Assembly: GCF_049075655.1 (NCBI RefSeq)
Contig: NZ_CP157522.1
Location: 320,001 to 384,000 of the forward strand
Length of the DNA stretch: 64,000 nucleotides
Direction of reading: 5' to 3'
Origin: Methanothermococcus sp. Ax23
Lineage (GTDB): Archaea > AGJL01 > Methanococci > Methanococcales > Methanococcaceae
Positions 1 to 63,694 of the stretch are shown here, in pieces; within the stretch, counting starts at the first letter, position 1; each line of letters opens with the position of its first letter. Both the position numbers and the translations under genes were made by a program. Below the pieces are notes generated by a model. That model was not told the DNA's origin, ran no database searches, and saw only the letters and a program-made list of their open reading frames with translations.

Positions 1-89
1 AATAATTAAAAAATAAAAAGAATAAAAATATAATAAAAAATTATTTTCTAAATCACCAAGATGAGCTCTAAAATTTATTAAATAAATAT

Positions 90-1460
90 TTATTTTTTAA
101 ATTTAAGTGATATGTCAGTTGGGTAGTTGCCTGAAACACATGCAAGGCATAGATTTTTTCTACCTATTGCCTTTATTAAACCTTTAATACTCAAATAACC
201 CAATGAATCGGCATGAATATAATCCCTTATTTCATCAACAGATTTTGAGCTGGCAATTAATTCTTCCTTTGTTGGCATATCTATTCCATAAAAACATGGA
301 GATATTATTTTTGGAGAACCCACTCTTAAATGCACTTCCTTTGCTCCTGCCTTTCTAACCATATCTACGATTCTTCTTGATGTTGTCCCTCTAACGATAC
401 TATCGTCAATTAAGACTACTCTTTTACCTTTTAATATGGTCTTAACAGGATTTAATTTTAATCTAACAGCTAAGTTTCTCTCCTCTTGGGAAGGGAGTAT
501 AAATGTTCTTCCTACATACCTGTTCTTTATTAATGCCTCGTAATATGGAATATCCAATTCTTCGGAATATCCTATTGCCGAAGTTATTCCAGAATCGGGA
601 ACTGGCGAGATAATATCCGCATCGCAAGGTTCTTCTTTTGCAAGTATTCTACCAATATTTCGCCTTACATTATATACGCTGATACCGTCAATTACTGAAT
701 CAGGTCTTGCAAAATAGACATATTCAAACATGCATGTTGATGCGTTTTTTAAACAATCATCCTCTGAAACATAATAATTCTCAATACCTTCTTTGTTAAT
801 TACAATGATTTCTCCTGGATTAACATCCCTTATGAGCTCGGCATCAACTACATCTAAGCCACAGCTTTCTGATGAAATATAAAAATTATCTTCATCTTTT
901 CCAATGCACAATGGCTTAAAACCATTTGGGTCTCTAACAGCTATAAGTGTGTTGTTGTATAGTATAATTAAAGAATATGCTCCAATTAACTCTTTTGAAA
1001 CATTTATTATTGACTGGATAATGTCTTCTGTTTTTAGGAGCTCCTTTACAAGCAGGTGTGCTACAACCTCAGAATCTGTTGATGATGTAAATATATGCCC
1101 TTGCTTTTCCAATTCCTCCTTTAAAATATGAGAATTAACAATATCACCGTTGTGAGCTATTGCCAAATTCCCAAGTGAGCTATTTACTATAAACGGCTGG
1201 CAGTTTTCAATTACGGAGCTCCCTGTGGTTGAGTATCTAACATGACCTATTCCAATATGACCTTTAAGGAGCCGGATATTTTCATTATTAAATACCTCGG
1301 GAACCAATCCCAATCCTTTATGGGAGTGTAATTCATGTCCATTGCTTACTACAATTCCTGCTCCTTCCTGCCCTCTATGCTGTAAAGCATAAAGACCATA
1401 GTATATCTTTCTTGCAACATCTTTATCTGAAAAAGAATATATTCCGAATATTCCGCACAT
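90..1460 (-). CDS. purF: Amidophosphoribosyltransferase
   Basis: N-terminal MCGIFG, QHRGQE, GHVRYST, PRPP motif [13 protein letters not shown]. Confidence 0.97.
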
Positions 1461-1639
1461 TTTATCACAGTTTAAATATGTTATAGAAAATATGATATAT
1501 GTTAAATATTAATGAGATATAAATAAAATTAATATTATTAGTTTAATAATCTAATATTTAAAGATTAACTGTAAAAATGTATTTAAAATAAAGTATAAAA
1601 AATAATAAAATAATTTTAATTAATGATTTTTTATATTTT

Positions 1640-3583
1640 TTATCGAGCTCCTGCACCTCCACCTCCAAATCCACCACCTGCACCAAATCCACCACCCATT
1701 CCCGGAGTTCCGCTGGTGGGTTTTATGGTGGCAATATATGCAGTATTTACTGAGGAATGCATGGAGCCGAAGGAATAGTATATTAGAGGATAGTAATTTA
1801 TCATCTCCCGCGTATTTTCAGGTAATTTAACATCTAATGATTTCAATGCCTTTTCAACATTCCTTCCAACACCAAGGGCAGTTCCATATATCAACCATTC
1901 TTTCCACATCAATATATCCTGAGGAGCGTATTTTTTTATCATGGCAATATCTGATAGAAACTTTTTAAATGATTCCCATTCAAGTTTTTCTTTATAATAA
2001 TCCTTTTTCCATTTACCAAATAGAGTTTTAGGGGCTATAATCAATACAACGCACTGCATAATCCACGCAATTGATAGATAGAATATGTGTGCAGTATCTG
2101 GATACAGGATTTTATAGTCTCCTGAGGATAATATGTAAGATACTACTGCAACAATCACCGAACAGGCAAGCAAAGCCCATATTATTATATTTCCCGTATT
2201 GTCCATATATTCATTAACAGAATACGATGATACAGGTGAGCTCATAATACCATTAACTTCATCCCATAGTCGCTGAGCTCCTATTCTGTTTTTGTTATAC
2301 TTATGTTCTGATGCTATTGCCTCAATTGTTGAAGGTTTAAATATGTTATTTTTCGAGTATCTTATTAAGAAAGCCATAATCTTTTTTTCGTAGTTATCTA
2401 AATTGGATAAATCCTTGCTGTGTATCTCTATACTAACATCATCGGTTGATTCCCCTGGCGATATTTTGATATATTTTTTATCATGAAGGTCTAAAAGTGT
2501 GGCATAAAATCCCTCCTTCCCAAACTCACCCACCTTTCCATTGAATATTAAATTAACAACCCAGGGTTTTCTATTTTTGTTTGGAACATAGCTTAGATAT
2601 TCGGGGACAATGTATTTCTTTTCTGCACCATATTTCTTATAAAGAATATATGCCATTAATGGAAAGATTACAACCATTATGGAAAACAGATATTTGATTA
2701 TGGATAATACCCTGTTTATTAAGAAATATCTATTATTTGCAGATAGGGTCTTTTCCTTAACATTATCTACATAATTGTAATACCCTACAACAGATTCTGG
2801 TTTTAAAAGCATCTCTAATTCAATTAATCCGTTTTCTGGACTATGGCCTGTGATTATATACTCATCACCTGTTTTTGATACCTTAAAACCCACTGGATGC
2901 ACAAATAGATTTAAAATATTATCATTTTTATCTACAACATGGATATTTACTTTTTTATATGGGAAATGCTCATCTGCAAGTTTTAGATTTAAATGGGATA
3001 CAGTATTATCGTATTCTATCGGAGGATATATGCTGAATAGATAGGATGTCGAATAATCCCCTGAACTGTATTTGTTCGGATTGTAAAATCCCACTTCATT
3101 TATTACATTGTATTGAACTACTAAGCTTTTTATATCCCTTAAAATCTCGAAGGATTCGGTATCTGCACGTAAAGTTCCATTGTATTCCACCACATAACCC
3201 ACCATATCCCCACTGGACGCGCTTAAATTAAGCAAAGTTATGTGAGGTTGGGAAACTGTTTCACTATAATTTGGATAATTATAATAACTATAATCATGAG
3301 CTCCGATAACCTCAACTTTGGAAATATTGCAACCACAAATTAAAGGCACCTTCCAATCCCTATAAAGCATCCTATATTTTTTATTTTCATATATTTGATA
3401 ATTATAGGTTTCTCTTAGGGATATGTTTTTATCCAATATGAGCTCGGCATTGTAAGAATTTACATCTATTGAACTGAAAGATGAGGAGGGCAGGTATTGA
3501 CTGCCTAAGCTTAAAGCTACCCCCAACATACCAATAACTGCCATTATAATCAATACTATAAACAACTGTTTTTCTTCCCTCAT
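1640..3583 (-). CDS. DUF2207-family membrane protein
   Basis: TM segments, WKEWLIYGTALGV, Gly-rich tail GGGFGGGGAGAR; downstream of lemA as is typical. Confidence 0.8.
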   Translation of the reverse strand: MREEKQLFIVLIIMAVIGMLGVALSLGSQYLPSSSFSSIDVNSYNAELILDKNISLRETYNYQIYENKKYRMLYRDWKVPLICGCNISKVEVIGAHDYSYYNYPNYSETVSQPHITLLNLSASSGDMVGYVVEYNGTLRADTESFEILRDIKSLVVQYNVINEVGFYNPNKYSSGDYSTSYLFSIYPPIEYDNTVSHLNLKLADEHFPYKKVNIHVVDKNDNILNLFVHPVGFKVSKTGDEYIITGHSPENGLIELEMLLKPESVVGYYNYVDNVKEKTLSANNRYFLINRVLSIIKYLFSIMVVIFPLMAYILYKKYGAEKKYIVPEYLSYVPNKNRKPWVVNLIFNGKVGEFGKEGFYATLLDLHDKKYIKISPGESTDDVSIEIHSKDLSNLDNYEKKIMAFLIRYSKNNIFKPSTIEAIASEHKYNKNRIGAQRLWDEVNGIMSSPVSSYSVNEYMDNTGNIIIWALLACSVIVAVVSYILSSGDYKILYPDTAHIFYLSIAWIMQCVVLIIAPKTLFGKWKKDYYKEKLEWESFKKFLSDIAMIKKYAPQDILMWKEWLIYGTALGVGRNVEKALKSLDVKLPENTREMINYYPLIYYSFGSMHSSVNTAYIATIKPTSGTPGMGGGFGAGGGFGGGGAGAR

Positions 3584-3668
3584 ATTATCCCCAATATAAA
3601 AAAATAGTATATTTTTATATTTTTTACTTTTTTGTTTTATTTACTTCTATTTTTGTATTTTTGCAATA

Positions 3669-4643: not shown

Positions 4644-4704
4644 TTTTTCACCGTGTTTTATTTTTATTTCCTTTAATAATAATTATCGTTTATAAATTTT
4701 ATGC

Positions 4705-11832: not shown

Positions 11833-13149
11833 ATGAGAAACTACTTAATAAATAAAAGAAAAGCGGAATCGCAGGAAAATTTAAACAATTATCGTAAAAA
11901 TATCATATTAAAATTTAGAAAAAGTAAAATTTATAGCACAATAGATGAAATGAAACCGAATTTAAACAAATACCTTTTAAATCTAAAAATAAACGGAGGT
12001 ATAAAAAAATATCCTGAAGATTTTATTGTGGAAGAAATTACAGAAGATGGAATTGTTTTAGAACATGGAAAAGACTTAAAAGACATTTATTTTAAAGATA
12101 CGCCAAATTGGAACGGTTCTTTTATACACTTCACATTGGAAAAAATAAACTGGAACACAATGGATGCCATAAGGGAACTGGCAAAAAGAACAGGCACTAA
12201 GAGAAAAAACTTTGGTTTTGCAGGAACAAAGGATAAATTTGCCTTAACAACTCAAAGGGTTGGTTGTTTTGGAATAAAACCGGAGAAACTGGAAAAAATA
12301 AAGGACAGTATAAAAGATATAAAAATAAGGGATATTCAAAAAACAAATATTAAACTTAGAATGGGAAGTTTATGGGGTAATAGATTTACAATAAGGATAA
12401 GATTAAAAGATAATGGTAATAATAAAAATAATAATATCGAAGAAATAGCCAACTCCTTAAAAAATACCAAATTGGATTATGTTTTAAACTACTACGGCAT
12501 GCAGAGATTTGGAACATATCGTCCTATTACTCATGTGGTGGGAAAATTCATATACAATAGGGATTTTGAAAGTGCATTTTATACATATTGCGGAGCTCCG
12601 ATAAATGAAACTGGAAAAACACTTGAAGCAAGAAAGCTTGTAGATGAAGGGGACTTTAAAAATGCCTTAAAAATATACCCTAAGAGCCAGTATTATGAAA
12701 GAAAGATGATAAGGCACTACTTAAAAACGGGGAGTTTTAAGGAAAGCTTTAAAGTCCTCCCGCCACAGTTAAAAAGCATGTTTGTAAATGCCTACCAGTC
12801 CTATTTATTCAATGAAATGATAAATAAAAGATATGAATATGGATTTGAAGCAATGGAAGGGGATATTTTAATAGACGGCATTCCAACAGGAATATTAATT
12901 GGTAGTAATTCAGAATTATCTGGCGGAATTCAGGGAGAAATTGAAAAAGAAATAATAGATAGGGAAAATCTCGATTTAAAAGCATTTAAAATTGAAGACT
13001 TTGGGAACTTTCCCGGAGCTCGGAGGAAGTTAATCACAAAAGTTTATGATTTCAACTATTATATAGATAATGAAGGAATTGTCTTAAAATTCAAAATGGA
13101 AAGAGGAAACTATGCCACTGTGGTTTTGAGAGAGTTTATAGGGATATGA
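11833..13149 (+). CDS. truD: tRNA pseudouridine(13) synthase
   Basis: PEDFIVEE, FAGTKDK, GNRF, NYYGMQRFG, YATVVLRE. Confidence 0.95.
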   Translation: MRNYLINKRKAESQENLNNYRKNIILKFRKSKIYSTIDEMKPNLNKYLLNLKINGGIKKYPEDFIVEEITEDGIVLEHGKDLKDIYFKDTPNWNGSFIHFTLEKINWNTMDAIRELAKRTGTKRKNFGFAGTKDKFALTTQRVGCFGIKPEKLEKIKDSIKDIKIRDIQKTNIKLRMGSLWGNRFTIRIRLKDNGNNKNNNIEEIANSLKNTKLDYVLNYYGMQRFGTYRPITHVVGKFIYNRDFESAFYTYCGAPINETGKTLEARKLVDEGDFKNALKIYPKSQYYERKMIRHYLKTGSFKESFKVLPPQLKSMFVNAYQSYLFNEMINKRYEYGFEAMEGDILIDGIPTGILIGSNSELSGGIQGEIEKEIIDRENLDLKAFKIEDFGNFPGARRKLITKVYDFNYYIDNEGIVLKFKMERGNYATVVLREFIGI

Positions 13150-16372: not shown

Positions 16373-17786
16373 CATATTCCGCAAGAAGTCCCCTCCCGTA
16401 AGGGAGGGGATGAATTATGATAAAAACCTTCGGTTTTTATATATTTCCTTCGCTTCGCTCGGAAATGCGGGCATTATTTATATATAGCATAAGTAGCAAC
16501 ATACTATTTATAAGTTATCAAACTGTGAGGCAAATGTTGAAAAGGACTTATAGGTTCAGAATTTATCCTTCAAAGAGTATCCAAAGAACAATAGAGGAAC
16601 ATCTAAATATATGTAGATACCTCTATAACTATCTTTTGGAACAGAAAACCAAAAATCCAAAACTAAACAAAATGAATACTCAAAAACTAATAACCGAACA
16701 TAAAAAGGAAAATCCTGAACTTAAAAAAGTCCATTCAAAAGTCCTTCAAATGGTAAATAATAAACTCTGGGGAAACCTCAAAGCATTAGGCAAACTAAAA
16801 CAGAATGGGCATAAAGTCGGTAAGTTAAGATTCAAATCATCAAAGAATCGATATAAAACATTAGAATACAATCAATCAGGTTTTAAGATTAAGGATAACA
16901 AACTTCACCTATCTAAGATAGGAGAAATTCCTATAAAACTACACCAAAACATTAAAGGAAAGATTAAAAGTGTAATCATAAAAAAAGAACCAACAAACAA
17001 ATGGTTTGCTTTCTTCCAAGTTGAGGAAGAACCTAAACCACTGCCTAAAACTAATAAGGTTGTAGGTATCGATTTAGGAATCGATGGTTATACCATCGAT
17101 TCAGACGGGAACAAGTTTGAAAATCCAAAGTTTATAGATAAAACATTGGATAAAATAAAGAGAGTCCAAAAGAACCTATCACGAAAGGTTAAAGGTTCTA
17201 ACAATTGGAATAAAACTAAACTAAAACTTATCAAGGTTTATGACAAGTTAAAGAATCAGAAAAACGATTTTCTACATAAACTATCAAGATATTACATAAA
17301 TAACTACGATAAAATAGTTTTAGAGGACTTAAATATAAAATCAATGGTTGAAAATGGAAAAGGTAAGACCTTAAACCGTCATATTCTTGACAGTTCTTGG
17401 AAAAAATTTATAAATCAACTTCTCTACAAGGCGGAGGGTGCTGGTAGAGAAGTAATATTAGTAAATCCGTCTTATACTTCCAAAAAGTGTTCCAACTGCG
17501 GGCATGTTGTTAAAGACTTAAAACTTTCAGATAGAACCTTTTTTTGTCCTGTCTGCGGTTGGAAAATTGATAGGGATTATAACGCATCTCTAAATATATT
17601 AAAGTCAGGGCTGGGAGAGTCCGTTGTGCCTGCCGAGAGAAAACCTCTACTCCAAACCATTTCTTATAAAGAAGTGGTTTTGGGGCAAGTTTTCTCAATG
17701 AATCAGGAAGCCTTGCCCGAAGGGCGAGGGCTACGAAAACCGAAAGGTTTTCGTTTAACCCCGTCCGTAAGGGCAGAGTAATTCAC
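16373..17786 (+). mobile_element. IS200/IS605-family (IS1341-type, tnpB-only) element 1
   Basis: LE hairpin TCCCCTCCC-GTAA-GGGAGGGGA after TTTTAA(C); RE hairpin ending TCAC; no tnpA; left boundary uncertain by 1 nt. Confidence 0.85.
16534..17781 (+). CDS. tnpB: RNA-guided endonuclease TnpB
   Basis: TYRFRIYP, RuvC-I GIDLG, RuvC-II LEDL, Zn finger CSNC/CPVC, RuvC-III DRDYNAS. Start moved to 16534 because the ATG at 16417 lies in a hairpin insert. Confidence 0.93.
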   Translation: MLKRTYRFRIYPSKSIQRTIEEHLNICRYLYNYLLEQKTKNPKLNKMNTQKLITEHKKENPELKKVHSKVLQMVNNKLWGNLKALGKLKQNGHKVGKLRFKSSKNRYKTLEYNQSGFKIKDNKLHLSKIGEIPIKLHQNIKGKIKSVIIKKEPTNKWFAFFQVEEEPKPLPKTNKVVGIDLGIDGYTIDSDGNKFENPKFIDKTLDKIKRVQKNLSRKVKGSNNWNKTKLKLIKVYDKLKNQKNDFLHKLSRYYINNYDKIVLEDLNIKSMVENGKGKTLNRHILDSSWKKFINQLLYKAEGAGREVILVNPSYTSKKCSNCGHVVKDLKLSDRTFFCPVCGWKIDRDYNASLNILKSGLGESVVPAERKPLLQTISYKEVVLGQVFSMNQEALPEGRGLRKPKGFRLTPSVRAE

Positions 17787-20438: not shown

Positions 20439-20996
20439 TCATTCTTTTTTCTTCTTTTTGTCTTCTTCTATCCATTCTAATTTTCCCAATCCTGGCTGTC
20501 TCATGGTTAGTGCTATTTTACTACCTCTCTTTCTAGCCTCTCTTAAACTGACTGCTACAATTCTTGCTCTTACTTTATCTCCTTTTTCAATTACTCTTCC
20601 AGTTTCTTTTCCAATTATTGCCTCTCTTTTTGGGTCATAGGATACATAATCATCCATAATCTGGGATATGTGTATAAGCCCGTCAAGAGGTCCCAATCTT
20701 ACAAAGACACCGAATTCCACGACATCAACAACTTCCCCTTCTACAACTTCGTAGAGCTCCGGCATATAACATAAAACATCGAAAACTGCTGGGTGGTATG
20801 CTGCACCATCTCCATAAATTACCTTACCATCTCCAATTTCTCGTATTTCTCCGATTGATAATATAAATCCCATATCTTTATCAAGTATGCCCTCGTATTT
20901 TTCCATAAGTATTTTGTGTAGGGACTCGTTTAGCGGAGCTCCGAACATATATGGCGGAACTCTTACGGTATCTGAAATAGTTACTAATCTATACAA
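20439..20996 (-). CDS. rpoE1: RNA polymerase subunit E' (Rpo7)
   Basis: VRVPP..FG, GDGAAY, S1 domain, MRQPGLGK. Confidence 0.96.
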   Translation of the reverse strand: MYRLVTISDTVRVPPYMFGAPLNESLHKILMEKYEGILDKDMGFILSIGEIREIGDGKVIYGDGAAYHPAVFDVLCYMPELYEVVEGEVVDVVEFGVFVRLGPLDGLIHISQIMDDYVSYDPKREAIIGKETGRVIEKGDKVRARIVAVSLREARKRGSKIALTMRQPGLGKLEWIEEDKKKKKE

Positions 20997-21317: not shown

Positions 21318-22970
21318 ATGGTTGATTATGATAATACAGATGCCATTTATAAAAAATTTATAAGGTGTATAATAGATAAATTATTGTTAAATAAGGATAA
21401 GTTAAACTCCCTTCCACCAAAGAGGAAAAAACAAAAGGTTGAAGATATTAAGGCACAGTGTTTGAGAAAATTTGATTTAAATATTGGATTTCCCCCAAAT
21501 TCAGAAATAATAAAATATGCAACAGAAGATGAAAAGAAAGAAATAATACCTCTTCTTAGAAAAAAACCAATTAGAACACTATCAGGGGTTGCAGTGGTGG
21601 CAGTAATGACATCCCCTGACAAATGCCCCCATGGAAAATGCTTCTTCTGTCCCGGGGGGGCTGAAAGCACCTTTGGGGATGTTCCTCAGAGCTATACTGG
21701 TAAGGAGCCCGCCACAATGAGAGGTCTCATGTATGGATTTGACCCATATATTCAGACAAAGGAGAGAATAGAACAGCTTGAAAAAGTGGGGCATCCAACG
21801 GACAAAATAGAATTAATTATAATGGGCGGAACATTTCCTGCAAGACCTATTGAATATCAGGATAGTTTTATAAAGGGATGCCTTGATGCCATGAACGGCA
21901 CAATATCAGAAACACTTGAAGAGGCACAGAAAATAAACGAAACCGCAAAACATAGATGTGTGGCCATTACAATTGAAACAAGACCTGATTACTGTAAAGA
22001 AAAGGAAATAAACCAAATGCTTAAATTAGGTGCTACTAGGGTAGAGCTCGGAGTCCAAACAATATATAACGATATTTTGGAGTATATAAAAAGAGGACAT
22101 ACTGTTGAAGATACCATAAAAGCAACGCAATTATTAAAGGACAGCGGTTTAAAGGTGTCATACCATATTATGCCGGGGCTTCCTAAATCTTCAAAGGAAC
22201 TTGATAAAAAGGTATTTTATGAAGTATTCAATAATCCAGATTTTAAACCGGATTTAATAAAAATATACCCGTGCCTTGTGATAGAAGGAACTGAGTTATA
22301 TGAAATATGGGAAAAAGGAGAATTTAAACCAATAAATGATGATGAAGCAATAGAGCTCATCACCTATGCAAAATCCATAATGCCAAAATGGGTAAGGACT
22401 TCACGAATACAGAGGGATATTCCAGCAACAGTAATTGAGGAAGGAGTTAAGAAAAGCAATTTAGGTGAGCTCGTTTATAAGAACCTTGATAAAAAAGGCA
22501 TAAAATGTAAGTGTATAAGATGTAGGGAAGTAGGGCATGTAATGTATAAAAAAGGAATTATTCCAGATGTTGAGAATATAAAATTATGTAGGGAAGATTA
22601 TATTGCAAGTGGCGGAACAGAGATATTCCTATCCTACGAGGATGTTAAAAATGACATACTTATTGGATATTTAAGATTAAGGATACCGTATAAGCCATTC
22701 AGACCAGAGATAGACGACAAAACCGCATTGGTAAGGCAGTTGCATGTGTGCGGTCAGGAGCAGAAATTAACCGAAAAGGAAGGGAAAGAAACAGCATGGC
22801 AGCATAAAGGATACGGTAAATTATTATTAAAAGAGGCTGAAAGAATAGCAAAAGATGAATTTGATAAAAATAAATTGCTGATTACAAGCGGTATTGGTGC
22901 AAGGGAATATTATAGAAAGTTAGGATATGAACGAGTTGGGGCATACATGGGGAAAATGTTATATAAATAA
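21318..22970 (+). CDS. elp3: Elp3 tRNA uridine(34) acetyltransferase (radical SAM + KAT)
   Basis: RTLSGVAVVAVM, CPHGKCFFCPGG, QHKGYG. Confidence 0.95.
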   Translation: MVDYDNTDAIYKKFIRCIIDKLLLNKDKLNSLPPKRKKQKVEDIKAQCLRKFDLNIGFPPNSEIIKYATEDEKKEIIPLLRKKPIRTLSGVAVVAVMTSPDKCPHGKCFFCPGGAESTFGDVPQSYTGKEPATMRGLMYGFDPYIQTKERIEQLEKVGHPTDKIELIIMGGTFPARPIEYQDSFIKGCLDAMNGTISETLEEAQKINETAKHRCVAITIETRPDYCKEKEINQMLKLGATRVELGVQTIYNDILEYIKRGHTVEDTIKATQLLKDSGLKVSYHIMPGLPKSSKELDKKVFYEVFNNPDFKPDLIKIYPCLVIEGTELYEIWEKGEFKPINDDEAIELITYAKSIMPKWVRTSRIQRDIPATVIEEGVKKSNLGELVYKNLDKKGIKCKCIRCREVGHVMYKKGIIPDVENIKLCREDYIASGGTEIFLSYEDVKNDILIGYLRLRIPYKPFRPEIDDKTALVRQLHVCGQEQKLTEKEGKETAWQHKGYGKLLLKEAERIAKDEFDKNKLLITSGIGAREYYRKLGYERVGAYMGKMLYK

Positions 22971-23779: not shown

Positions 23780-24643
23780 TTATAAATATCCTTTTTCTTG
23801 CATTTTTTCTTTATAATATGTTGAGATAGACCTATATAAAGCCACAGAAGTGAAAAATCCTATAAATGATAATAGGACAGAATTAATAACTGCGGAAATG
23901 ATTAATAATATTACATTATTGTCTGATAATGCCGCCCCAACTCCCATAAACAATCCCGGCAATGATGCTATAAATGACAATGCCATCATTATTATGATTA
24001 ATACAATTACCAATAGAACGTATTTTAAAGATAATAGACTAATGATTTTTTTGAATTCAAAGAATCCTTTAAATCCAACATTTGCAAAATTTACAGACGC
24101 CAAGTAGAAATAGAACATATACAATAATGCTATCAACAAATAGGCACCCAATACTGCGAAAAAGTATATTATCAACAGCAGAGGAATTCCAATTAAGTAG
24201 ATTCCGTATCCAATTATTGATGCAATTATTATGAATGGCAGGAATACAATTAAGGCGAGTAATAGGCTTCCAATGTAGAACATTATACCTTTTTTAAATA
24301 GGTCATACCATCCTTCCCATTCTGGCAGTTGAGTATCGTATGATTCCACAGTATTTTTAGCCAATTTCATATAGTATCCATATTGGAGTGAGCCAAATAT
24401 TATGGATAAAAATATAATTAATGCAAATACCCCAAGAAGACCCAACAATATGGAGTAGTCAAAACTTGCTGATGACTCCATATTTTGAACATGGTTATTT
24501 GCACGCAACATGGCATCGAATACTTGGGAAGGTAGCATATACATTAATCCAAATACCCCTCCAACAAATATTTTTTTCCAATCGGACATGGCATATTTAA
24601 ATGGTTCTTTAATGTATTTTTCAACAAACATATTTTCTCCCAT
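23780..24643 (-). CDS. DUF4013 membrane protein (paralog 1)
   Basis: EPFKYA.SDWKK, GY.., LPEWE.W..LF.KG. Confidence 0.8.
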   Translation of the reverse strand: MGENMFVEKYIKEPFKYAMSDWKKIFVGGVFGLMYMLPSQVFDAMLRANNHVQNMESSASFDYSILLGLLGVFALIIFLSIIFGSLQYGYYMKLAKNTVESYDTQLPEWEGWYDLFKKGIMFYIGSLLLALIVFLPFIIIASIIGYGIYLIGIPLLLIIYFFAVLGAYLLIALLYMFYFYLASVNFANVGFKGFFEFKKIISLLSLKYVLLVIVLIIIMMALSFIASLPGLFMGVGAALSDNNVILLIISAVINSVLLSFIGFFTSVALYRSISTYYKEKMQEKGYL

Positions 24644-25049: not shown

Positions 25050-26026
25050 TAGTATGGGTCAAAATATATAAACTATACTAAATATAACATTATAAAAAAG
25101 ACGATATTATGAGGGCTGAGGAAGTAGTAAATGAGATAATTACATCAGATTTAATTGACCAAATCCCTAAACGAAGAAAGGTAGGGAGGAAAGGATATAA
25201 TTTAGAGTTGAGGCTTAAACTATTAGTGTATGCCTTTTTAAAAGGCATACACTCAAATAGAGCGTTAGTATTACACTTACAAAATAATCCACAGATTTTA
25301 ACTGCATTAGGATTTAAATCCTGCCCTGGTAGAAGAACCATCGATAGATGGAAAAAATCCCTAGATGAAGAATTGCATGCAATAATTACTTTATTAGGTG
25401 ATAAATATATTGAACTGAATAATCCTGAATGGTCAATATACGATAGCACCCCAATCAAAGACGAACAAGATGAGGATGGAAAGATAGGATATAACAGTGA
25501 AGGAATGTTTAAAGGCTTCAAATTACATTTAGCAGTGGATAAAAAGGGGATACCATTAAGAGCAGAATTTACCACAGCAAATACTCATGATTGTAAAGTG
25601 GCTGATAAATTATTAGTATGCACTAAGAAATCCTGTGCAGATGCGGGTTATGATTCAAAAGATTTAAAAAAATTTCACAAATCCTTTGGATTTGCTTATT
25701 TCCTCGCTATCGCTCGGAAAAGCCATGGAATTATACCAAAACGAACTAATAACTGCCCACAATCCAAGAAGATTAGGTAAGAAAAATAAAAAGAAACTTC
25801 CGAAGGAAATTTCTAAGATAAGAGTTAAAATAGAACATACCAATTCGATATTAAAGAACAGATTTATGAATAAGTTTTGGATTAACATTAAAGGCTATAT
25901 CCGTAAAAAAGTATTCTGTCTCTGTGCAGTGGCTTCTGCACAGGTTTTAGCGTTATATAATCTCATTACCAGAGGTTACCCTTATATGAAAGTCTTAGAG
26001 GTTAGGGTGTAATATGACCCACACTA
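25050..26026 (+). mobile_element. IS5/IS982-like DDE insertion sequence
   Basis: TIRs TAGTATGGGTCA / TGACCCACACTA (11/12). 11-bp direct repeat TTATTATTTAA at 25039-25049 and 26027-26037. Confidence 0.85.
25109..26012 (+). pseudogene. DDE transposase frameshifted by a hairpin insertion at about 25673-25721
   Basis: IYDSTPI, GFKLHL, ADAGYDS in ORF1; RVKIEHTNS in ORF2. Removing 49 bp fuses them into about 284 aa. Confidence 0.85.
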
Positions 26027-26029: not shown

Positions 26030-26908
26030 TTATTTAATTTTATTTATTTTATCAACATAGTAGTTTGAAAAGGATTTATAATATACCACATAAATAAAGA
26101 AAGAAATAAATGCAACTACTGACTCCCCAATAATATTTAATGATTCATTAATTACAATGTTTGGCAATACCATATCAAAAATAAATCCAAATATTGCAAA
26201 TATCATGGATATTGCAGAGATTATAATAAATATTCCAATGATATATATAATAACCAACAATAGATATTCAAGAGACATTAATTTTAAAATATACTTAAAT
26301 TCAAAAAATCCTTTAAATCCTTTTTTAGCAAAATTCACCGTTGCCAATGGTTCGTATATTGTATATATTACAAATCCCACCATATACAGCAATATGGCAA
26401 ATATAAATGTAATCCAAACCAATGGTTCAGGAGCTCCGATAGGTGGTATGTTGTAGGGCAAATTTCCATGAGCTCCTGAGAGATTATGAATAAATGAAAT
26501 ATATAAATATATCCCGATACCTAAAACAATAGTTGGTATTGCAAAAATTATTATTCCCAACAGTATCATTCCAACAGTCCATTTAATTCCATTTAGAAAC
26601 AAATCTTTAAAATTTTCCCATTTTGGTAAATGCCCTCCCCCATCTACCGTATTTTTTGCTATTTTTATTAAATATCCTGTTTGAATTATCAATAACATCA
26701 ATCCCAATAGTGCCAATATTCCCAAAATTGCGGCAATAATTTGCTCCACGATGGATAATTGATAAAATAATGAAAAATCTGGTAATATTAAACTTAATAA
26801 ATCAATAGATATATAAAATATCAATCCAAATACGCCACCAACAAATATCTTTTTCCAGTCTGATATTGCGTATTTTATCGGTTCTTTAAAATATCGTTCT
26901 ATAAACAT
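26030..26908 (-). CDS. DUF4013 membrane protein (paralog 2)
   Basis: Same motifs as paralog 1 (EPIKYAISDWKKIFVGGVFGL, LPKWE, NFA..GFKGFFEFK). Confidence 0.8.
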   Translation of the reverse strand: MFIERYFKEPIKYAISDWKKIFVGGVFGLIFYISIDLLSLILPDFSLFYQLSIVEQIIAAILGILALLGLMLLIIQTGYLIKIAKNTVDGGGHLPKWENFKDLFLNGIKWTVGMILLGIIIFAIPTIVLGIGIYLYISFIHNLSGAHGNLPYNIPPIGAPEPLVWITFIFAILLYMVGFVIYTIYEPLATVNFAKKGFKGFFEFKYILKLMSLEYLLLVIIYIIGIFIIISAISMIFAIFGFIFDMVLPNIVINESLNIIGESVVAFISFFIYVVYYKSFSNYYVDKINKIK

Positions 26909-33481: not shown

Positions 33482-33652
33482 TTTTTTAATTATCTTTTTT
33501 AACCTTTACTTTTTAGTTATTACTTGTTTTTAAAATAGTCAAATCATATTATCCCACAATGATTAGAAAAATAGAACGAAGAAGGGACAACTCATTCATT
33601 TAAAATAATTTACTGTAATTTAAATAAGTATCGACGATATTTAGGTGAGCTC

Positions 33653-37584: not shown

Positions 37585-38934
37585 TTATCCATTCAACCCT
37601 TCAATAATCCTTTTTATCTCTTCGATTTTTTCGTTCATAAGCTCCTCAGTATCAGCCTCCAAATTCAATCTTAAAAGCGGTTCTGTGTTTGAAGGTCGGA
37701 CATTAAACCACCAATTGTCGCAGTATATAGATATTCCATCGATTTCTTCAATTTTGCATTTACTGTATCTATTTTTTAGCTCATCCATTATCAATTTTTG
37801 GTCTTTTACCTTAAAGTTTATCTCTCCGCTGTGGAAGTATTTTTTATACTCCTTCGATAATTCAGAAAGTGGCTTTCCCATATCCTTTATAGCACATAAT
37901 ATGTAATTTAAAGCAAGCAGTGGGCTTTCAAAATATCCAACTTCTTTAAAGTAAAAGTGATTTGAGAGCTCACCTGCAAATTCTGCATCTACTTCGTGCA
38001 TAAGTTTTTTTATAAAATAATGCCCAACTCGTGTTTTTATCGGAGCTCCGCCATATTTTTCAATCATTTCAGGAACAATCTTACTACATCTTAAATCATA
38101 AACTATTTTTATTTCCTTTTCATTTCCATTCTTAGTTTCCTTTTTCTCCTTCAATATCTCTATGGCTATTAAGACCGTTAATATATCCCCCTGCAAGACA
38201 TTGCCTTTTTCATCAATTATTCCAATTCTATCTCCGTCTCCATCAAATATTACTCCAATATCGCAATTTTCATTTTTAACGGCATTTATTATATCCACTA
38301 AGCAGGATTTTTTCAATGTGTCAGGCTGATGTGCAGGAAATGTTCCATCTGGGTAGTCGTTTATAAATACATGATTAGGTGCTAAATTCTTCAATATCTC
38401 CTTTTCTGCAATAGCTGTGCTTCCATTTGCAAAATCAACTGCTATTTTTATATCGCAGGATACACACCTGTTTAAAAAGAATTTTTTATAATCTGTGATT
38501 ATATCCACCTTTAATTTATCCAAATCGATTTCTTCAATTTCCTTTTTCTGAGCTTCATTTAGTTCATGTTCTTCAAAAATTGGTTTTATTTCATCTATTG
38601 GAGATATTGGAATAGCTTTTTTATCACACATTTTAAATCCAGTATATTCCGGCGGATTGTGGGATGCCGTTAAAATTACCCCCAAATCATAATTATCCTT
38701 TGTTCCAAAATACATCAATGGTGTGGATATTGTTCCAGCATAGGATACTTTTGCACCTGATTCAAGTAGTCCATATATAAATGGCTTGGTGAGCTCCTTT
38801 GAACCTATCCTTACGTCGTTTCCAACCAGTATATTTTTATACTTTTTTCCAAGGGATTTTCCAAGAGAATATGCAAAATTTTCGTCAATTTGTTCTTTAA
38901 AAACGCCCCTAATATCATAAGCTTTAAATACCAC
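37585..38934 (-). CDS. Phosphomannomutase/phosphoglucomutase
   Basis: FKAYDIRG, TASHNP, DGDGDR, GELSNH, RPSNTEP. Confidence 0.95.
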   Translation of the reverse strand: MVFKAYDIRGVFKEQIDENFAYSLGKSLGKKYKNILVGNDVRIGSKELTKPFIYGLLESGAKVSYAGTISTPLMYFGTKDNYDLGVILTASHNPPEYTGFKMCDKKAIPISPIDEIKPIFEEHELNEAQKKEIEEIDLDKLKVDIITDYKKFFLNRCVSCDIKIAVDFANGSTAIAEKEILKNLAPNHVFINDYPDGTFPAHQPDTLKKSCLVDIINAVKNENCDIGVIFDGDGDRIGIIDEKGNVLQGDILTVLIAIEILKEKKETKNGNEKEIKIVYDLRCSKIVPEMIEKYGGAPIKTRVGHYFIKKLMHEVDAEFAGELSNHFYFKEVGYFESPLLALNYILCAIKDMGKPLSELSKEYKKYFHSGEINFKVKDQKLIMDELKNRYSKCKIEEIDGISIYCDNWWFNVRPSNTEPLLRLNLEADTEELMNEKIEEIKRIIEGLNG

Positions 38935-42843: not shown

Positions 42844-42860
42844 TTATCAAATGCTGAAAT

Positions 42861-43228
42861 CTGACCTACTCCAACGAGTGAACTCGTTGGGTTCTCGCTT
42901 ACGGTAGTAAGCGAGCAACGAAATCACGAAGTGATTTCGTCTAATTTTAGCAGGGTTTAACCCTACATGGGTGGCCAAGCCCACTACCCCTATCCCCGTT
43001 TAGGAGATTCAGGGCTACGCTGTATCACTAAGATTACTCTATCAAAACAAACCACGATACCAACCACTACCAGCGGTAGAGTTTTCACTAACCCTACCCA
43101 TTAGAACTTGGACTGGTAGCGTTACTTACTATTAATCTTCTCATATTTATATTTTACTACTTACTAGCCGATATAATGTCCGCCTCTCATCCAACGATTA
43201 AAATCGTTGGCTTTCTCGGCGGTTTATC
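42861..43228 (-). mobile_element. Non-autonomous IS200/IS605 MITE copy A carrying an omegaRNA-like right end
   Basis: Near-identical to 44432-44806. LE hairpin CCAACGAT-TTTA-ATCGTTGG follows a TTAC flank. RE hairpin CCAACGAG-TTCA-CTCGTTGG ends TCAG. Confidence 0.85.
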
Positions 43229-43435: not shown

Positions 43436-43806
43436 ACTTTGTATATATTTTTCATTTAAAGTCGGAAGAAATAGTATTAAAGTGATACTTACTATAAAAC
43501 ATAGTTCGTAATAGTATTTAAAACTTATGATATTATTATTTGACAATATTTGAAACATTTGGTTCAAAAGTGTAGATGATATTATTTTTACAATAATATA
43601 GGATAATAAGTTATTTCAAAGAATTCATATTTCAACAACCTCTAACATATCATAACATTTATATATGTGTAGTATATACACAAATGTAATATCAAAGAAA
43701 TCTTTAAAAATGCGGTAGTTGATGCAGTTCCATCAAATTTAAGAATTAAACTTAAAGGGCACGGAAAAGGGTTTGAATTAGGCGATAATATAAAAAGGTG
43801 ATATTT

Positions 43807-44412
43807 ATGGAAAATATACTGCCCAACATTGAGGGAAAAACTCCAAAAATAGATAAAAATGTGTTTGTTGATAAAAGTGCAGTAATTATAGGAGATGTTA
43901 TCATAGAAAAAGATGTTTATGTAGGTCCAAACGCTGTTATAAGATGTGATGAACCTCCAACTAAGAACATATTAATAAAGGAAGGAGCTAATATTCAAGA
44001 TTTAGTGGTGATACACTGCCTTAGAAACGCACCAATAGTTGTTGGAAGAGAAACTTCAATTGCCCATTCCTCAGTAATTCATGGCCCTGCAAAAATTGGA
44101 GATAATGCATTTATTGGATTTAATTCAGTCATATTTGGAGCTGAAATTGGAAATAATGCCGTAGTAGGGCATAACTCAGTTATAGATGGAGTTGGTGGCA
44201 ATTTAAAAATACCGGATAATAAATGGATCCCTCCAAACACTTCCATATATAAAGACTCAGATGGTGTAATAAGAGCATTTTTGCCCGATGGAACTGTTCT
44301 AACGGATTTTAATAATCTTCCCGATATCCCAGAATGGTACAGGGAAGTTCCCGGGGAGGTTGTGAAAGTAAATAAGGAATTAAATTTAGGATATAAAAAA
44401 TTTATTAAATAA
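43807..44412 (+). CDS. Gamma-class carbonic anhydrase (Cam-like)
   Basis: Hexapeptide repeats, IRCDE, NIQD.VVIH, SIAHSSVIHGP (three His ligands). Confidence 0.88.
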   Translation: MENILPNIEGKTPKIDKNVFVDKSAVIIGDVIIEKDVYVGPNAVIRCDEPPTKNILIKEGANIQDLVVIHCLRNAPIVVGRETSIAHSSVIHGPAKIGDNAFIGFNSVIFGAEIGNNAVVGHNSVIDGVGGNLKIPDNKWIPPNTSIYKDSDGVIRAFLPDGTVLTDFNNLPDIPEWYREVPGEVVKVNKELNLGYKKFIK

Positions 44413-44431
44413 TTTTTAGTTTCAAGTTAAG

Positions 44432-44806
44432 CTGACCTACTCCAACGAGTGAACTCGTTGGGTTCTCGCTTACGGTAGTAAGCGAGCAACGAAATCACGA
44501 AGTGATTTCGTCTAATTTTAGTAGGGTTTAACCCTACAAGGGTGGCCAAGCCCACTACCCCTATCTCCGTTTAGGAGATTCAGGGCTACCTTTTGAACTT
44601 CCAACCACTACCAGCGGTAGAGTTTTCGATAACCCTACCCATAGATACTTGGACTGGTAGCGTTACTTACTACTAATCTTCACATATTTATATTTTACTA
44701 CTTACTAGCCGATATAATGTCCGCCTCTAATCCAATCTCATAAGAGATTTTACAAAACTATGTTTTGTATAACGATTAAAATCGTTGGCTTTCTCGGCGG
44801 TTTATC
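44432..44806 (-). mobile_element. Non-autonomous IS200/IS605 MITE copy B (with 37-bp insert in LE hairpin)
   Basis: Near-identical to 42861-43228, with extra 44735-44771. Confidence 0.85.
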
Positions 44807-52238: not shown

Positions 52239-53553
52239 GACTCATTAGGCAGGAAGCCCACGATTTCAATCGTTATACAAAACAATGTTTTGTAAAATCT
52301 CTTACGAGATGGGAGGAATGCCGTTTTTTAGCATACATCATACTTAAAACCACCAAAAACTTTTTATATATTGAATGATATACTCAATAGTATGGTGATA
52401 CCATGCTATTAACACTAAAATCTAAACTAATAACAACACCAGAACAAAAAACCACACTATTAAAAACAATGGAACGATTCAATTCAGCATGCAATTACAT
52501 ATCAAAAATAGCATTCAAAACCAAAACCTTTGGAAAAGTAAAACTACAAAAACTCGTATATTATGATGTAAGAGAAAAATACGGTTTATCATCTCAAATG
52601 GTGGTAAGAGCAATAGGAAAAGTATCAGAAAGTTATAAAACAGATAAAAAAACACTTCATAAATTCAAACCACACGGTGCAATAATATACGATGAAAGAA
52701 TACTAACAATCAAAACACCAGACACAATATCAATACTAACAATAAACGGTAGAATAAAACTACCAATCAAATTTGGAGATTATCTACCATTGGAAAATAA
52801 AAGAGTGAGAGGGCAGGCGGATTTAATCTACAAAAACGGTGAATTTTACCTAATGCTTGTTGTAGATATTCCAGAAGAGCCTCCAAACTCTTCATTTTCT
52901 AATGTGTTAGGTGTTGATTTAGGTATTGTTAATTTAGCAACTACGAGCGATGGAGTAAAATACTCGGGAGAAAAATGCACGAAAGTAAGAAAACGATACG
53001 AGAGATTAAGAGCAGAATTACAAAAGAAGAACACTTGGAGTGCTAAAAGAAAGCTTAAAAAAATAAGTGGTAGAGAAAGACGATTTAAACGGGATATAAA
53101 CCATTGTATTTCTAAACAAATCGTCATAACTGCCAAAGGCACGAACCGAGCGATTGCCTTAGAAGATTTGAAAGGCATTCGAAACGGTGGCACGGTTAAT
53201 AAGGCAGTTAAAAAACTTATTGACAGATGGGCATTCTATGAGTTAGCACAATTTATCCAGTATAAAGCAAAATTATACGGTGTTCCAGTATTCTTTGTTA
53301 ATCCACGATACACGAGCCAAACTTGCAGTAATTGCGGTCATGTGTCTAAAAATAACCGTAAAAGTCAGTCAGTATTCGTTTGTGAAAAATGTGGTTTTTC
53401 AGAGAATGCTGATGTTAATGCCGCTTTGAACATTGCCCACCGAGCAGAACAATACTATTTAGGGCTGTCCTGTCAGCCAGCCTAATGTCCTCCGCCCTAA
53501 TTATTAAGGGAGTTGGAAGGACAAGCCAACGGATTTATCCGTTGGTAGCTGAC
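52239..53553 (+). mobile_element. IS200/IS605-family (IS1341-type, tnpB-only) element 2
   Basis: Inserted 3' of TTCAC without TSD. LE hairpin CCCACGAT..ATCGT[insert]GGG. RE hairpin CCAACGGA-TTTA-TCCGTTGG ends TGAC. Confidence 0.92.
52403..53485 (+). CDS. tnpB: RNA-guided endonuclease TnpB
   Basis: GVDLG, ALEDL, YTSQTCSNCG..CEKCG, NADVNAA. Confidence 0.94.
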   Translation: MLLTLKSKLITTPEQKTTLLKTMERFNSACNYISKIAFKTKTFGKVKLQKLVYYDVREKYGLSSQMVVRAIGKVSESYKTDKKTLHKFKPHGAIIYDERILTIKTPDTISILTINGRIKLPIKFGDYLPLENKRVRGQADLIYKNGEFYLMLVVDIPEEPPNSSFSNVLGVDLGIVNLATTSDGVKYSGEKCTKVRKRYERLRAELQKKNTWSAKRKLKKISGRERRFKRDINHCISKQIVITAKGTNRAIALEDLKGIRNGGTVNKAVKKLIDRWAFYELAQFIQYKAKLYGVPVFFVNPRYTSQTCSNCGHVSKNNRKSQSVFVCEKCGFSENADVNAALNIAHRAEQYYLGLSCQPA

Positions 53554-58785: not shown

Positions 58786-58792
58786 GCCAAAG

Positions 58793-59851: not shown

Positions 59852-60019
59852 AGATTATCACCGTTAATATATGGCATATTTATATAATATATTATCAAAA
59901 ATATTTATAATTACATATACCTACTACTTATTAATTTATGGATAAGTATAATTTATAGATATTCATTTAAAAATTTAATAATCACTCAAAGATATTAATT
60001 TTTTTAATATAGTGATATT

Positions 60020-60469: not shown

Positions 60470-60497
60470 ATGTATAAGAAAAATTAAATTATACCTA

Positions 60498-61094: not shown

Positions 61095-61202
61095 AATATC
61101 ACCTCATTTTGTTTTTTAGTTTTAGTTTATTAGTTTTTTATTTTATTTTTTTATTGTATTTTCCTATTATTTTCCTTATTTCTTATTTTTTTGTTATATT
61201 AA

Positions 61203-62144: not shown

Positions 62145-62194
62145 AGTATCCCACTTTGTTGATAGTGATGATGATAACGATAATAATATTTCAT

Positions 62195-62587
62195 TTACAG
62201 CATATCCTTAGTAATGTTTTCTAAATCCTCTTCATTCATCTCATCAATCCATCCCGTAACTTCTTTACACCATTTTTCCATTGTATCCTTTATAACCTCT
62301 TTCACTTCTGAAAAAGGAACTGCTTCATATTTGTAAAAATATCCGCCTTCTTTGAGATTTATCTGTTTTCTTTTTACAAGCCCTGCATTTACTAAGCTTT
62401 GGACAGACCTTTGGATGGTGCTTCTATCTCTATTGAGTAATTCTGCTATATCATTTACCCTTGATGCACCATTTTTTAACAGTGAGAGATACACTGCTAC
62501 ATCAAATGTTTTAATACCGAACATACAACACATTATACTCTCCAATGTAAATGTGGAGCAGGGTGTTTTAATCATTAATTTAGCCAC
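62195..62587 (-). CDS. TrmB/ArsR-like HTH regulator
   Basis: [25 protein letters not shown]. Confidence 0.8.
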
Positions 62588-62737
62588 AATATCACCAAAA
62601 CTTAATTTATACTTAATAATTTAGTATATGATTGAATAATTTAGTATTATGGAAATTTATATATATTATTTTTTATAATATATAGATATAATACAATAAA
62701 ATGTTTAATTATATTCAATTGTAAATTGGGGGAAATT

Positions 62738-63127
62738 ATGAAAGTAAAAGAAGTTATGAATCCCATGATATATAAAATAAATGAAAATGAATCATTATAT
62801 GACGCATTTAAACTTATGAATGATAAGGGAATTAAAAGAATTTTTGTGGAAAATAAAGGCGAAATTGTAGGGGTTATAAGTTATAGGGATTTAGTAAATA
62901 TAATCATGAATAAAAGTATATCTGAATTACTAAATATAAACAGTAAAATTGAAGATATTGCTACAAAGGAAATTTTAAAGATAAATGAAAATGAAGATAT
63001 AAAAGACGTAGCTAAAATAATGGTTCATGCAGATGTATCCGCCATTCTTGTTGTAGATAATGATGATAATCCTGTGGGAGTAATATCTCAAACTGATATT
63101 TTACGTTCAATAGTTAAAGAATATTAA
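62738..63127 (+). CDS. CBS-domain protein
   Basis: Tandem CBS motifs GVISYRD / GVISQTD. Confidence 0.85.
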   Translation: MKVKEVMNPMIYKINENESLYDAFKLMNDKGIKRIFVENKGEIVGVISYRDLVNIIMNKSISELLNINSKIEDIATKEILKINENEDIKDVAKIMVHADVSAILVVDNDDNPVGVISQTDILRSIVKEY

Positions 63128-63220
63128 TAAAAAATAATTAAGAAATAATGAACAAAAAATTAAGAAATAAAAAATAAAAACCATAGAATTTTTAACATTA
63201 TAAAAAGAAAAGATGGAATT

Positions 63221-63694
63221 ATGGATTTGTATTTAATTGCACAAAATTTAATAAATGATTATGGATATTGGGGGATATTTCTCATAGCTTTTACTGAGTC
63301 ATTTATTCAACCTGTGCCACCGGATATATTTATAATGGGAGCTCCTGCATTTGGTTTAGACCCATTAACTTGTGCCATTATATCAACTATTGGTTCAATG
63401 TTTGGTGGGTTAACTGGACATTTTTTAGGCTATCGACTTGGAACACCTGCATTTATTAAACTTTTTGGAGAAAAATATTTAATAAAGGGAGAGGAATTCT
63501 TTGACAAATACGGCATTTGGGGTGTTTTAATAGCTGGATTTTCACCACTACCTTATAAAGTTGTGGCATGGCTTGCTGGAATCTTTGAAATGAAGATTTT
63601 GCATTTTAGTATAGGGACACTCATTGGTAGATTTCCAAGATTTTTACTTGTAGCATACTTCGGACATAGTGTTGCAGTATTCTTTGGGCTTTAA
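63221..63694 (+). CDS. YqaA/DedA (VTT) family membrane protein
   Basis: [24 protein letters not shown]. Confidence 0.85.

Follow-up and report, generated by a model that had tools for sequence, protein, structure and literature searches.

In this work we asked why the palindrome GAGCTC is so frequent in a 64-kb stretch of DNA from the archaeon Methanothermococcus sp. Ax23, positions 320001 to 384000 of its main contig (G000:C1; the whole stretch is hereafter called the window). The genome, here G000, comprises 1.67 Mb in two contigs and has 31.9% G+C. A preliminary description of the window, made from its letters, had counted about 80 copies where about 4 were expected, an excess of roughly 20-fold, and had likened the word to HIP1, the highly iterated palindrome of cyanobacteria, in what it took to be an archaeal host. 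The host is indeed archaeal, a Methanothermococcus, and the count was close: we found 82 copies against 3.58 expected from 100 dinucleotide-preserving shuffles (standard deviation 1.84, maximum 11), or about 23-fold, including all twelve positions that had been listed for the first 4 kb. The sites had also been said to fall in several reading frames. By our own gene calls, which are based on open reading frames (ORFs), 40 of them lie in frame 0, where the word is read as GAG-CTC (Glu-Leu), 29 in frame 1 (xGA-GCT-Cxx) and 8 in frame 2 (xxG-AGC-TCx), and a further 5 are non-coding. Is this abundance a by-product of the proteins and codons of the host, or does something act on the word in the DNA itself?

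An excess at the level of the DNA

Genome-wide, GAGCTC occurs 2,089 times in G000, that is 1.25 times per kb and 17–20 times the expectation, and it has, by a wide margin, the highest observed-to-expected ratio of all 4,096 hexamers. The second contig, which is 7.7 kb long, holds 4 copies against 0.35 expected (about 11 times). When the two half-sites were moved apart as GAG-Nk-CTC, only k=0 was strongly enriched (14-fold). The ratio varies with the null model, being 16.7 for a Markov chain of order 0, 19.7 for order 1, 13.1 for order 2, 4.9 for order 3 and 1.6 for order 4. The expectation of the high orders is inflated, because the sub-words from which it is calculated belong mostly to GAGCTC itself: the main contig has 5,049 AGCT tetramers, of which 2,085 lie inside GAGCTC, and the 15 other NAGCTN words have 126–325 copies each.

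Could the excess nevertheless result from codon usage, codon-pair bias or amino-acid composition, with no signal at the DNA level? A single codon pair, GAG-CTC, accounts for 56% of the coding sites, and the order-4 ratio of merely 1.6 might be taken in the same sense, although the pentamers on which that expectation rests are mostly parts of GAGCTC. Our ORF script called 1,593 genes, covering 85.7% of G000, and placed 1,095 sites in frame 0, 625 in frame 1, 224 in frame 2 and 141 outside genes, a class which may include small genes and RNA genes. After synonymous codons had been shuffled within genes, the 1,945 coding sites fell to 194±13, an excess of about 10-fold which is seen alike in the three frames (13-fold in frame 0, 7-fold in frame 1 and 9-fold in frame 2), and permutation of whole codons left 116 sites. 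The Glu-Leu pairs of G000 are written GAG-CTC in 1,095 of 3,940 cases (28%), against 67 (1.7%) expected, so that the odds of finding GAGCTC at such a pair are, by simple arithmetic, about 22 times those expected from codon usage (a log-odds of about 3). Both codons are rare elsewhere, and of the 2,844 CTC codons 1,095 come directly after GAG; within Glu-Leu codon pairs, the near-matches GAA-CTC and GAG-CTT reach only 0.30 and 0.31 of their expectation. Non-coding DNA, with 25% G+C, contains its 141 sites against 4.8–8.5 expected, which is a 17- to 29-fold excess. Finally, the excess is missing from relatives whose GC content and codon usage are similar. Given the synonymous shuffles, the three frames, the non-coding DNA and these relatives, we rejected a codon-level origin, whose probability we regard as negligible. 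The preliminary description had proposed counting hexamers against Markov and codon-shuffled nulls, and had held that its reading would fail if the excess vanished under a tetramer-aware null or if the sites kept to one frame; the excess survived both the tetramer-aware and the codon nulls, and the sites were not limited to one frame.

The GAGCTC excess is thus a property of the DNA and not of codons or proteins. Along the chromosome the density of sites is nearly Poisson (a mean of 24.8 sites per 20 kb with a variance of 34.8), and their spacing is close to exponential rather than regular, with an excess of long gaps: 11 stretches of more than 5 kb have no site, where 3.9 would be expected. 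The use of GAGCTC in G000 was unrelated to codon-usage class, and hence showed no link with expression: its share of Glu-Leu pairs is 27–30% in every class. The word has the features of a HIP, namely a palindrome with an observed-to-expected ratio of at least 10 and hundreds to thousands of copies per Mb, dispersed over all coding frames and non-coding DNA and not embedded in a longer repeat, the information in the flanks being at most 0.22 bits per position.

Distribution, dialects and turnover among relatives

We surveyed 40 genomes of the order, counting the hexamer in 31 of them and two extended forms, the octamer GGAGCTCC and the decamer CGGAGCTCCG, in all 40. The hexamer counts are bimodal. 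Five genomes are rich in the word, G000 with 2,089 copies, G012 with 2,070, G010 with 1,645, G013 with 1,515 and G003, which is 90% complete, with 1,321; the poor genomes have 4–229. The decamer occurs 24–56 times in each of the five rich genomes and 0–2 times in each of the other 35, and neither extended form revealed a further rich genome, which leaves 5 of 40. The genus group g3 (seven genomes, among them G014 and G016) has 11–19 octamers per genome and about 100 hexamers in each of the three members counted. A 400-kb sample of the poor genome G005 contained 3 GAGCTC and no comparably enriched word, the highest observed-to-expected ratio there being about 5. A tree built with FastTree from ELP3, AspRS and partial HisRS of 30 taxa, a thin basis in which the fragmented G001 was left out and G007 had no ELP3 match, joins the rich genomes as ((G000,G003),G012),G010 (support 0.97), sister to poor members of the same genus (1.0), and groups G013 with a poor genus (0.99). 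If this tree is right, the five rich genomes do not form one clade, and at least two events have to be assumed: the word was gained twice, or gained once and lost twice.

Another aspect of the survey concerns the lowest counts. Five genomes in or near the sister clade have very few sites, G007 4, G008 9, G005 14, G002 16 and G015 26, compared with about 50–230 in the other poor genomes. It may be that GAGCTC is restricted in these sister genomes, as such counts would be expected of a word under that pressure.

What surrounds the hexamer is not random. Four genomes together supply 308 fully non-coding sites, and among these position -1 is G in 53% (against 12% in the background), -2 is C or G in 55%, and T occupies -3 in 48% and -5 in 47%; coding sites show the same tendencies. 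The preferences are weak, symmetric and graded without sharp edges, out to about ±5 bp, and GAGCTC is the strict core of a weakly extended palindrome, roughly sGGAGCTCCs. No 10-bp phasing or sign of histone positioning was seen in the flanks, only the 3-bp period of codons. In G010 the flanks have become part of the word: 1,259 of its 1,645 sites (77%) are the octamer GGAGCTCC, compared with 333 of 2,089 in G000, 184 of 1,321 in G003, 335 of 2,070 in G012 and 191 of 1,515 in G013 (13–16%). In the G010 lineage the octamer reaches an observed-to-expected ratio near 300, G is found at -1 in 84% of the sites, and the non-coding density equals the coding density. There are thus two dialects, the hexamer and, in one lineage, the octamer. 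Graded symmetric flanks together with two such dialects would point to a DNA-binding reader which acts as a dimer and whose specificity has evolved. The longer decamer is also present in the window, exactly at the three places where the preliminary description had located extended forms (Table 1).

The word also leaves its mark on proteins. Gly-Ala-Pro, which is encoded by the octamer as GGA-GCT-CCn, is over-represented 6.6-fold in G010 and 2.3- to 2.6-fold in G000 and G012, and its ratio is 0.7 in G005; Glu-Leu has a ratio of 1.14–1.26 in four rich genomes and 0.92 in G005. GAGCTC therefore alters protein sequences.

How stable are the individual sites? For this comparison, which the preliminary description had proposed as a search for site gains at synonymous and non-synonymous positions, we drew on 1.2 Mb of G012 and on samples of 400 kb from each of G010, G013 and G005. 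In 875 orthologues of G000 and G012, with 87% amino-acid identity, 942 sites are shared, 280 occur in G000 only and 273 in G012 only. At conserved Glu-Leu positions GAGCTC was kept with a frequency of 0.86 (n=619), compared with 0.62 for GAATTA and GAACTT and 0.05–0.39 for other pairs; it is better conserved between these related genomes than any other Glu-Leu hexamer, a further HIP-like feature, and this retention means that the word is preserved although it is built of otherwise rare codons. The non-shared positions differ at 1, 2, 3, 4, 5 and 6 bases in 131, 181, 165, 61, 13 and 2 cases, respectively. The peptide, too, is different at 341 of these 553. With G010 as outgroup for 190 genes, 61 sites were present in all three genomes, 148 in G000 and G012, 42 in G000 alone and 40 in G012 alone, while 8 were present in G012 and the outgroup and 5 in G000 and the outgroup. 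Such lineage-specific sites in both lineages (42 and 40) against 13 clear losses suggest that gains may be continuing in the G000 and in the G012 lineage, with losses roughly in balance.

Sharing extends to the rich genomes further away, with 106 of 398 sites for G010 and 89 of 399 for G013, against 1 of 343 for the poor G005. A G000 site at a conserved Glu-Leu raises the chance of a site at the same place from 0.086 to 0.34 in G010 and from 0.117 to 0.28 in G013. The turnover can be followed in the ELP3-like gene of the window, which has three frame-0 sites (Table 1); in relatives the corresponding codons spell Glu-Leu in another way, or else Asp-Leu, Glu-Ile or Glu-Val, and G003, although closely related, lacks all three sites.

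Perhaps the sites are selected as binding sites of a chromosome-organizing or nucleoid protein which is needed at high density. A palindrome with weak symmetric flanks to about ±5 bp would suit a dimer with a footprint of about 16 bp, the sites are spread over the whole chromosome and the small contig, and they are conserved above the neutral level. A packaging role sits poorly, however, with the exponential gaps, too many of them longer than 5 kb, and with flanks that show no 10-bp periodicity; the positions turn over fast even at 87% amino-acid identity, and close relatives manage with about 100 sites or fewer than 20. We consider such a protein an improbable cause of the excess.

Mobile DNA, candidate enzymes and possible causes

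The preliminary description had noted that the two tnpB genes, the DDE insertion sequence and the miniature inverted-repeat transposable elements (MITEs) of the window lack GAGCTC. This is correct, and it extends to their copies throughout G000: no site was found in 16 TnpB copies or fragments (15.5 kb), in 8 copies or fragments of the DDE transposase (4.7 kb) or in 38 BLAST matches to the MITE-like element (7,287 bases). Together these three classes make up 27.5 kb with 0 sites, whereas the average density of the genome predicts about 34 (the copies not being independent of one another). Of the ten largest site-free gaps examined, most cover stretches of low GC with few or no G012 orthologues, or the type III restriction-modification genes; one lies over conserved genes.

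Some details of the mobile elements may be added. The DDE transposase ORF sits between two DUF4013 paralogues, at 23780–24643 and 26030–26908. The MITE-like element of about 337 nt, which may be a MITE or else a TnpB-associated RNA region, is relatively GC-rich and has at least a dozen near-full-length copies in G000 with 88–100% identity; its window copies flank a gene for a hexapeptide-repeat transferase (43798–44412).

Table 1. Positions in the window of GAGCTC sites, extended forms and genes discussed in the text
Feature	Position	Strand	Basis or remark
Span holding all 82 GAGCTC sites	63–63344		Site list and shuffle expectation; last site 63339–63344
Non-coding GAGCTC, example	63–68		Four further non-coding sites start at 33647, 44868, 55092 and 55901
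Extended decamer CGGAGCTCCG	12591–12600		3 in the window, 0 expected
Extended decamer CGGAGCTCCG	20934–20943		Same window count
Extended decamer CGGAGCTCCG	38041–38050		Same window count
Three frame-0 sites (22044, 22353, 22467) in ELP3-like gene 21318–22970	22044–22472	+	Example of site turnover
TnpB (IS605 OrfB) gene without GAGCTC	16417–17781	+	Pfam
Second TnpB gene without GAGCTC	52403–53485	+	Pfam
DDE transposase ORF without GAGCTC	25109–25780	+	Pfam
MITE-like repeat of about 337 nt without GAGCTC	42858–43194		Second direct copy 44429–44735
Eco57I/MmeI-like type IIG restriction-modification gene, 1,069 amino acids, 4 GAGCTC sites	33653–36862	+	Pfam

Which enzyme could act on the word? The preliminary description had pointed to DNA methyltransferases, as proposed for HIP1. 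In a true analogue of HIP1 an orphan methyltransferase would methylate GAGCTC, and repair linked to the methylation would create and maintain the sites (Elhai's model). The pattern is very like that of HIP1 and of the "alternate HIPs", which, according to the accessible text of PMC4390886, include the 6-mer GGCGCC with an observed-to-expected ratio of 15.5. G000 itself carries several N6/N4 methyltransferases: an N4/N6 enzyme of 300 amino acids (aa), a type III Mod, a type I HsdM and three members of the Eco57I family (567, 1,078 and 1,069 aa). No C5-methyltransferase of family PF00145 was found in G000, however, and among the families searched, PF00145, PF01555, PF02384 and PF07669, none has a member common to G000, G003, G010, G012 and G013. 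A search for PF02384 across 31 genomes gave only small, housekeeping-sized matches in G010, and one for PF01555 in five genomes gave only a housekeeping-sized match in G012 and no DNA methyltransferase. In G000 neither a D12-class methyltransferase (PF02086) nor a phage Dam (PF05869) was found, the sole weak D12-class match being a Trm5-type tRNA methyltransferase; MT-A70 (PF05063) had no match there either, which is a weak negative, as the control matched nothing. A scan of the 1,593 ORF products of G000 for [DNS]PP[YFWH] gave 20 matches and no further DNA methyltransferase; the newcomers were surface proteins, BpsA, nitrogenase-like and nickel-insertion proteins, a PD-(D/E)XK nuclease, an ion channel and small RNA or protein methyltransferases. 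An undetected enzyme would not be unprecedented, since some cyanobacteria with abundant HIP1 lack a recognizable CGATCG methyltransferase, as stated in the available part of PMC4390886.

Two of the methyltransferases of G000 were considered individually. The 300-aa enzyme is of the SPPY type and lies at G000:C1:1437541-1439159 together with a convergent, overlapping ORF of 245 aa that has no Pfam match and may be its restriction partner. It occurs in G000, in G003 and in five genomes of the other family (74–77% identical), and was rejected as the enzyme of GAGCTC for being absent from G010, G012 and G013. The type IIG enzyme encoded in the window (Table 1) was rejected as a reader of the word in the same way, since a full-length homologue is present only in G013 (78%) and none was found in G010 or G003. 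A relative on the second contig of G012 aligns in its N-terminal part only, residues 1–514 with 74% identity and 556–726 with 47%, and this distribution hints at an exchange of type IIG genes among the lineages rich in GAGCTC. In the window the gene lies between those for HisRS and a phosphoglucomutase-family protein, and is followed at 36862–37512 by a 216-aa ORF of no known family.

As regards repair, a Vsr protein was not found in G000, the one genome searched for it. In G000, G010, G013, G005 and G016 neither MutS (MutS_V, PF00488; 0 of 5, while the control matched 11 of 14) nor NucS (PF01939; 0 of 5, control matched) was found, so that both known routes of mismatch repair appear to be lacking. 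GAGTTC/GAACTC, the neighbour that deamination would produce, is not depleted genome-wide (observed/expected 0.88); with no Vsr, no PF00145 and this ratio, the signature of very-short-patch repair was discounted. With no MutS or NucS found in those five genomes, no Vsr in G000 and no methyltransferase found in all the rich genomes, methylation-directed mismatch repair, which the preliminary description had also suggested, is unlikely for this word. The likeness to HIP1 that it saw holds for the palindrome, the roughly 20-fold excess, the even dispersal over all frames and non-coding DNA, the lack of sites in mobile DNA, the conservation and the variant forms; the link with methylation is not supported by these searches, and an enzyme of the kind in Elhai's model has, in our estimate, little chance of being the cause.

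Other candidates fared no better. Glycosylases of the HhH-GPD family are present in 1–2 copies in every genome, irrespective of the trait. The model RE_SacI (PF09566) had no match in 31 genomes, although the control genomes did not match it either. A synteny screen for genes present in G000, G012 and G010 and missing at the matching place in the sample of G005, which covered about a quarter of the genome, gave 28 candidates; the two checked with Pfam proved to be a P-type ATPase and another TnpB. Two curiosities were met in the genome. At G000:C1:107906-110394 lie adjacent paralogous secreted or surface proteins (332 and 496 aa) with nearly identical N-terminal parts of about 165 residues and no Pfam family, and at G000:C1:1177428-1183004 an ORF of 1,858 aa encodes topoisomerase I with intein-splicing and LAGLIDADG domains, in two stretches each.

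The explanation that we tentatively prefer, at a likelihood which we put slightly short of even, is that GAGCTC is a HIP1-like word kept up by a sequence-specific bias which acts as a molecular drive, by tilting repair or gene conversion. Both the biased process and the dimeric protein that reads the word are our inference from the patterns described above. A putative protein would read the palindrome as a dimer and tip repair or gene conversion, either between genome copies or with incoming DNA, toward the full word. Methanococcales are reportedly polyploid, and their genome copies are said to undergo gene conversion. Near-matches would be converted in this way, while full sites would be protected from the AT-biased decay of the rest of the genome. 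The bias would be modest for each potential site, as judged from the log-odds at Glu-Leu pairs, yet it would act evenly on all genes and suffice to change amino acids. In a few lineages related to Methanothermococcus the word would have accumulated and would still be created and preserved; recent DNA, such as insertion sequences, MITE-like elements, genomic islands and restriction-modification genes, would have yet to acquire sites. We favour a drive because it accounts for even density, random spacing, turnover and the delay with which foreign DNA acquires the word, with no need for a function at each site.

Several points weigh against a drive. No reader protein has emerged, as each tested candidate failed the test of presence and absence among the genomes, and a methyltransferase of a family outside those searched may exist. 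The one-mismatch neighbours of GAGCTC are depleted mildly or not at all genome-wide (0.6–1.2, apart from those containing GATC or GCGC), so that a conversion of near-matches is clear only within Glu-Leu codon pairs. The gain of new sites leans on outgroup states at fast-evolving positions, and those sites which the outgroup shares may simply be the ones that last longest. Lastly, all of the patterns are equally expected if the sites are selected, be it for uptake, self-marking or protein binding, and sequence alone cannot separate a drive from selection or a watermark.

Is it possible, then, that the word has a function as a mark of "self"? Natural transformation could use it as an uptake or recognition sequence, or it could act like Chi and label DNA as the cell's own for a recombination or degradation machine; uptake-biased recombination or selection would then enrich it in resident DNA. 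The dispersal of about one site per 0.8 kb, the strict core with graded flanks, the two dialects and the imprint on proteins would all agree with this, as would the contrast between the examined mobile elements, which are without the word, and the resident small contig, which has it at 11 times the expectation. A watermark would also explain the purging of the word from sister genomes, where 4–16 copies are left, as expected of a restriction target. In cyanobacteria HIP1 is currently argued to be an uptake sequence or watermark, and natural transformation exists in Methanococcus maripaludis, as far as the accessible portions of PMC13756078 and PMC10133366, respectively, indicate. On the other hand, ComEC (PF03772) had no match in five genomes, although no archaeal control genome matched it either, and archaeal transformation may use other parts. 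A word of 6 bp discriminates little, its spacing is exponential rather than regular, and the g3 genomes, with their few octamers and the hundred or so hexamers of the members counted, do not fit easily. We regard a self-mark as unlikely overall, though with a better prospect than a methyltransferase or a nucleoid protein. A more specific form of it, with a comparably limited claim, would be a methylation-independent watermark whose dimeric reader belongs to uptake, recombination or defence, the dialects channelling gene flow among vent methanogens. If this were true, purging in the sister lineages would reflect restriction of DNA with GAGCTC, and no uptake- or Chi-like signal would have been described in archaea before this one.

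Comparison with known systems

Hyper-abundant words such as HIP1, the DNA uptake sequences (DUS) of Neisseriaceae, the uptake signal sequences (USS) of Pasteurellaceae and Chi are among the few genome-wide signals of how cells handle their own DNA. To our knowledge the well-studied ones are all bacterial, and the function of HIP1 has been debated for three decades. GAGCTC offers a clean archaeal case, with about 2,000 copies, a distribution that is sharply on or off across 40 related genomes, two dialects and an influence on protein sequences that can be measured. Rich, neutral and depleting genomes form a natural comparative design for finding the reader protein, and the case tests the methylation idea and yields predictions on DNA uptake, heteroduplex repair and protein binding. 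Our literature search, which did not extend to subscription journals and supplementary files, found nothing that links GAGCTC with Methanococcales and nothing that contains GGAGCTCC. An archaeal HIP-like word with dialects, apparently independent of methyltransferases, would as far as this search reaches be new.

The closest parallel is HIP1 (GCGATCGC) with the alternate HIPs. They too are GC-rich palindromes at tens of times the expectation, with hundreds to thousands of copies per Mb, dispersed over coding and non-coding DNA, patchy among relatives, and with variant or extended forms in some lineages. GAGCTC differs in its archaeal host, in being another and shorter word, and in that no cognate orphan methyltransferase was found in all rich genomes, and no MutS. 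Quasi-periodic spacing, reported for HIP1 in the available text of PMC13756078, is not seen for GAGCTC. The survey of HIPs covers 97 cyanobacteria, and its accessible text makes no mention of archaea (PMC4390886).

Vsr repair, which shapes the frequencies of CCWGG and CTAG in E. coli, is similar in that a context-specific repair of T:G to C:G would protect and create a palindrome containing G and C against an AT-biased background, a bias of the sort proposed above for GAGCTC. G000, by contrast, has neither a Vsr homologue nor a C5-methyltransferase, its GAGTTC is not depleted, and the effect of Vsr on word frequencies in E. coli is far smaller. Restriction-site avoidance is a likeness with the sign reversed: G000 shuns many other palindromes and the sister genomes shun GAGCTC (4–16 copies), whereas in G000 this one word is accumulated. 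As to the avoided palindromes, words with GATC, CTAG, GTAC and CGCG are strongly avoided in G000 (about 0.03–0.15 of expectation), and CTCGAG, CTGCAG, CTTAAG, CTATAG, GTCGAC, GTGCAC, GTTAAC and GTATAC lie in the same range, which suggests that CTNNAG-like and GTNNAC-like sites are, or once were, subject to restriction.

Last, the uptake sequences. DUS and USS are non-palindromic words of 9–12 nt; their role in uptake has been demonstrated experimentally, and in Neisseria the receptor is known. GAGCTC, in contrast, is a palindrome of 6 bp with a putative role at most, and ComEC had no match in the five genomes searched, nor in any archaeal control genome. DUS and USS occur about once per kb, consist of a core with weaker flanks, have dialects, leave an imprint on proteins and are scarce in recently acquired DNA, and a model of accumulation by molecular drive has been proposed for them. 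GAGCTC resembles them in its density of about one per kb, in having a core with weaker flanks, in its lineage dialects, in its imprint on the proteome and in its scarcity in foreign DNA.

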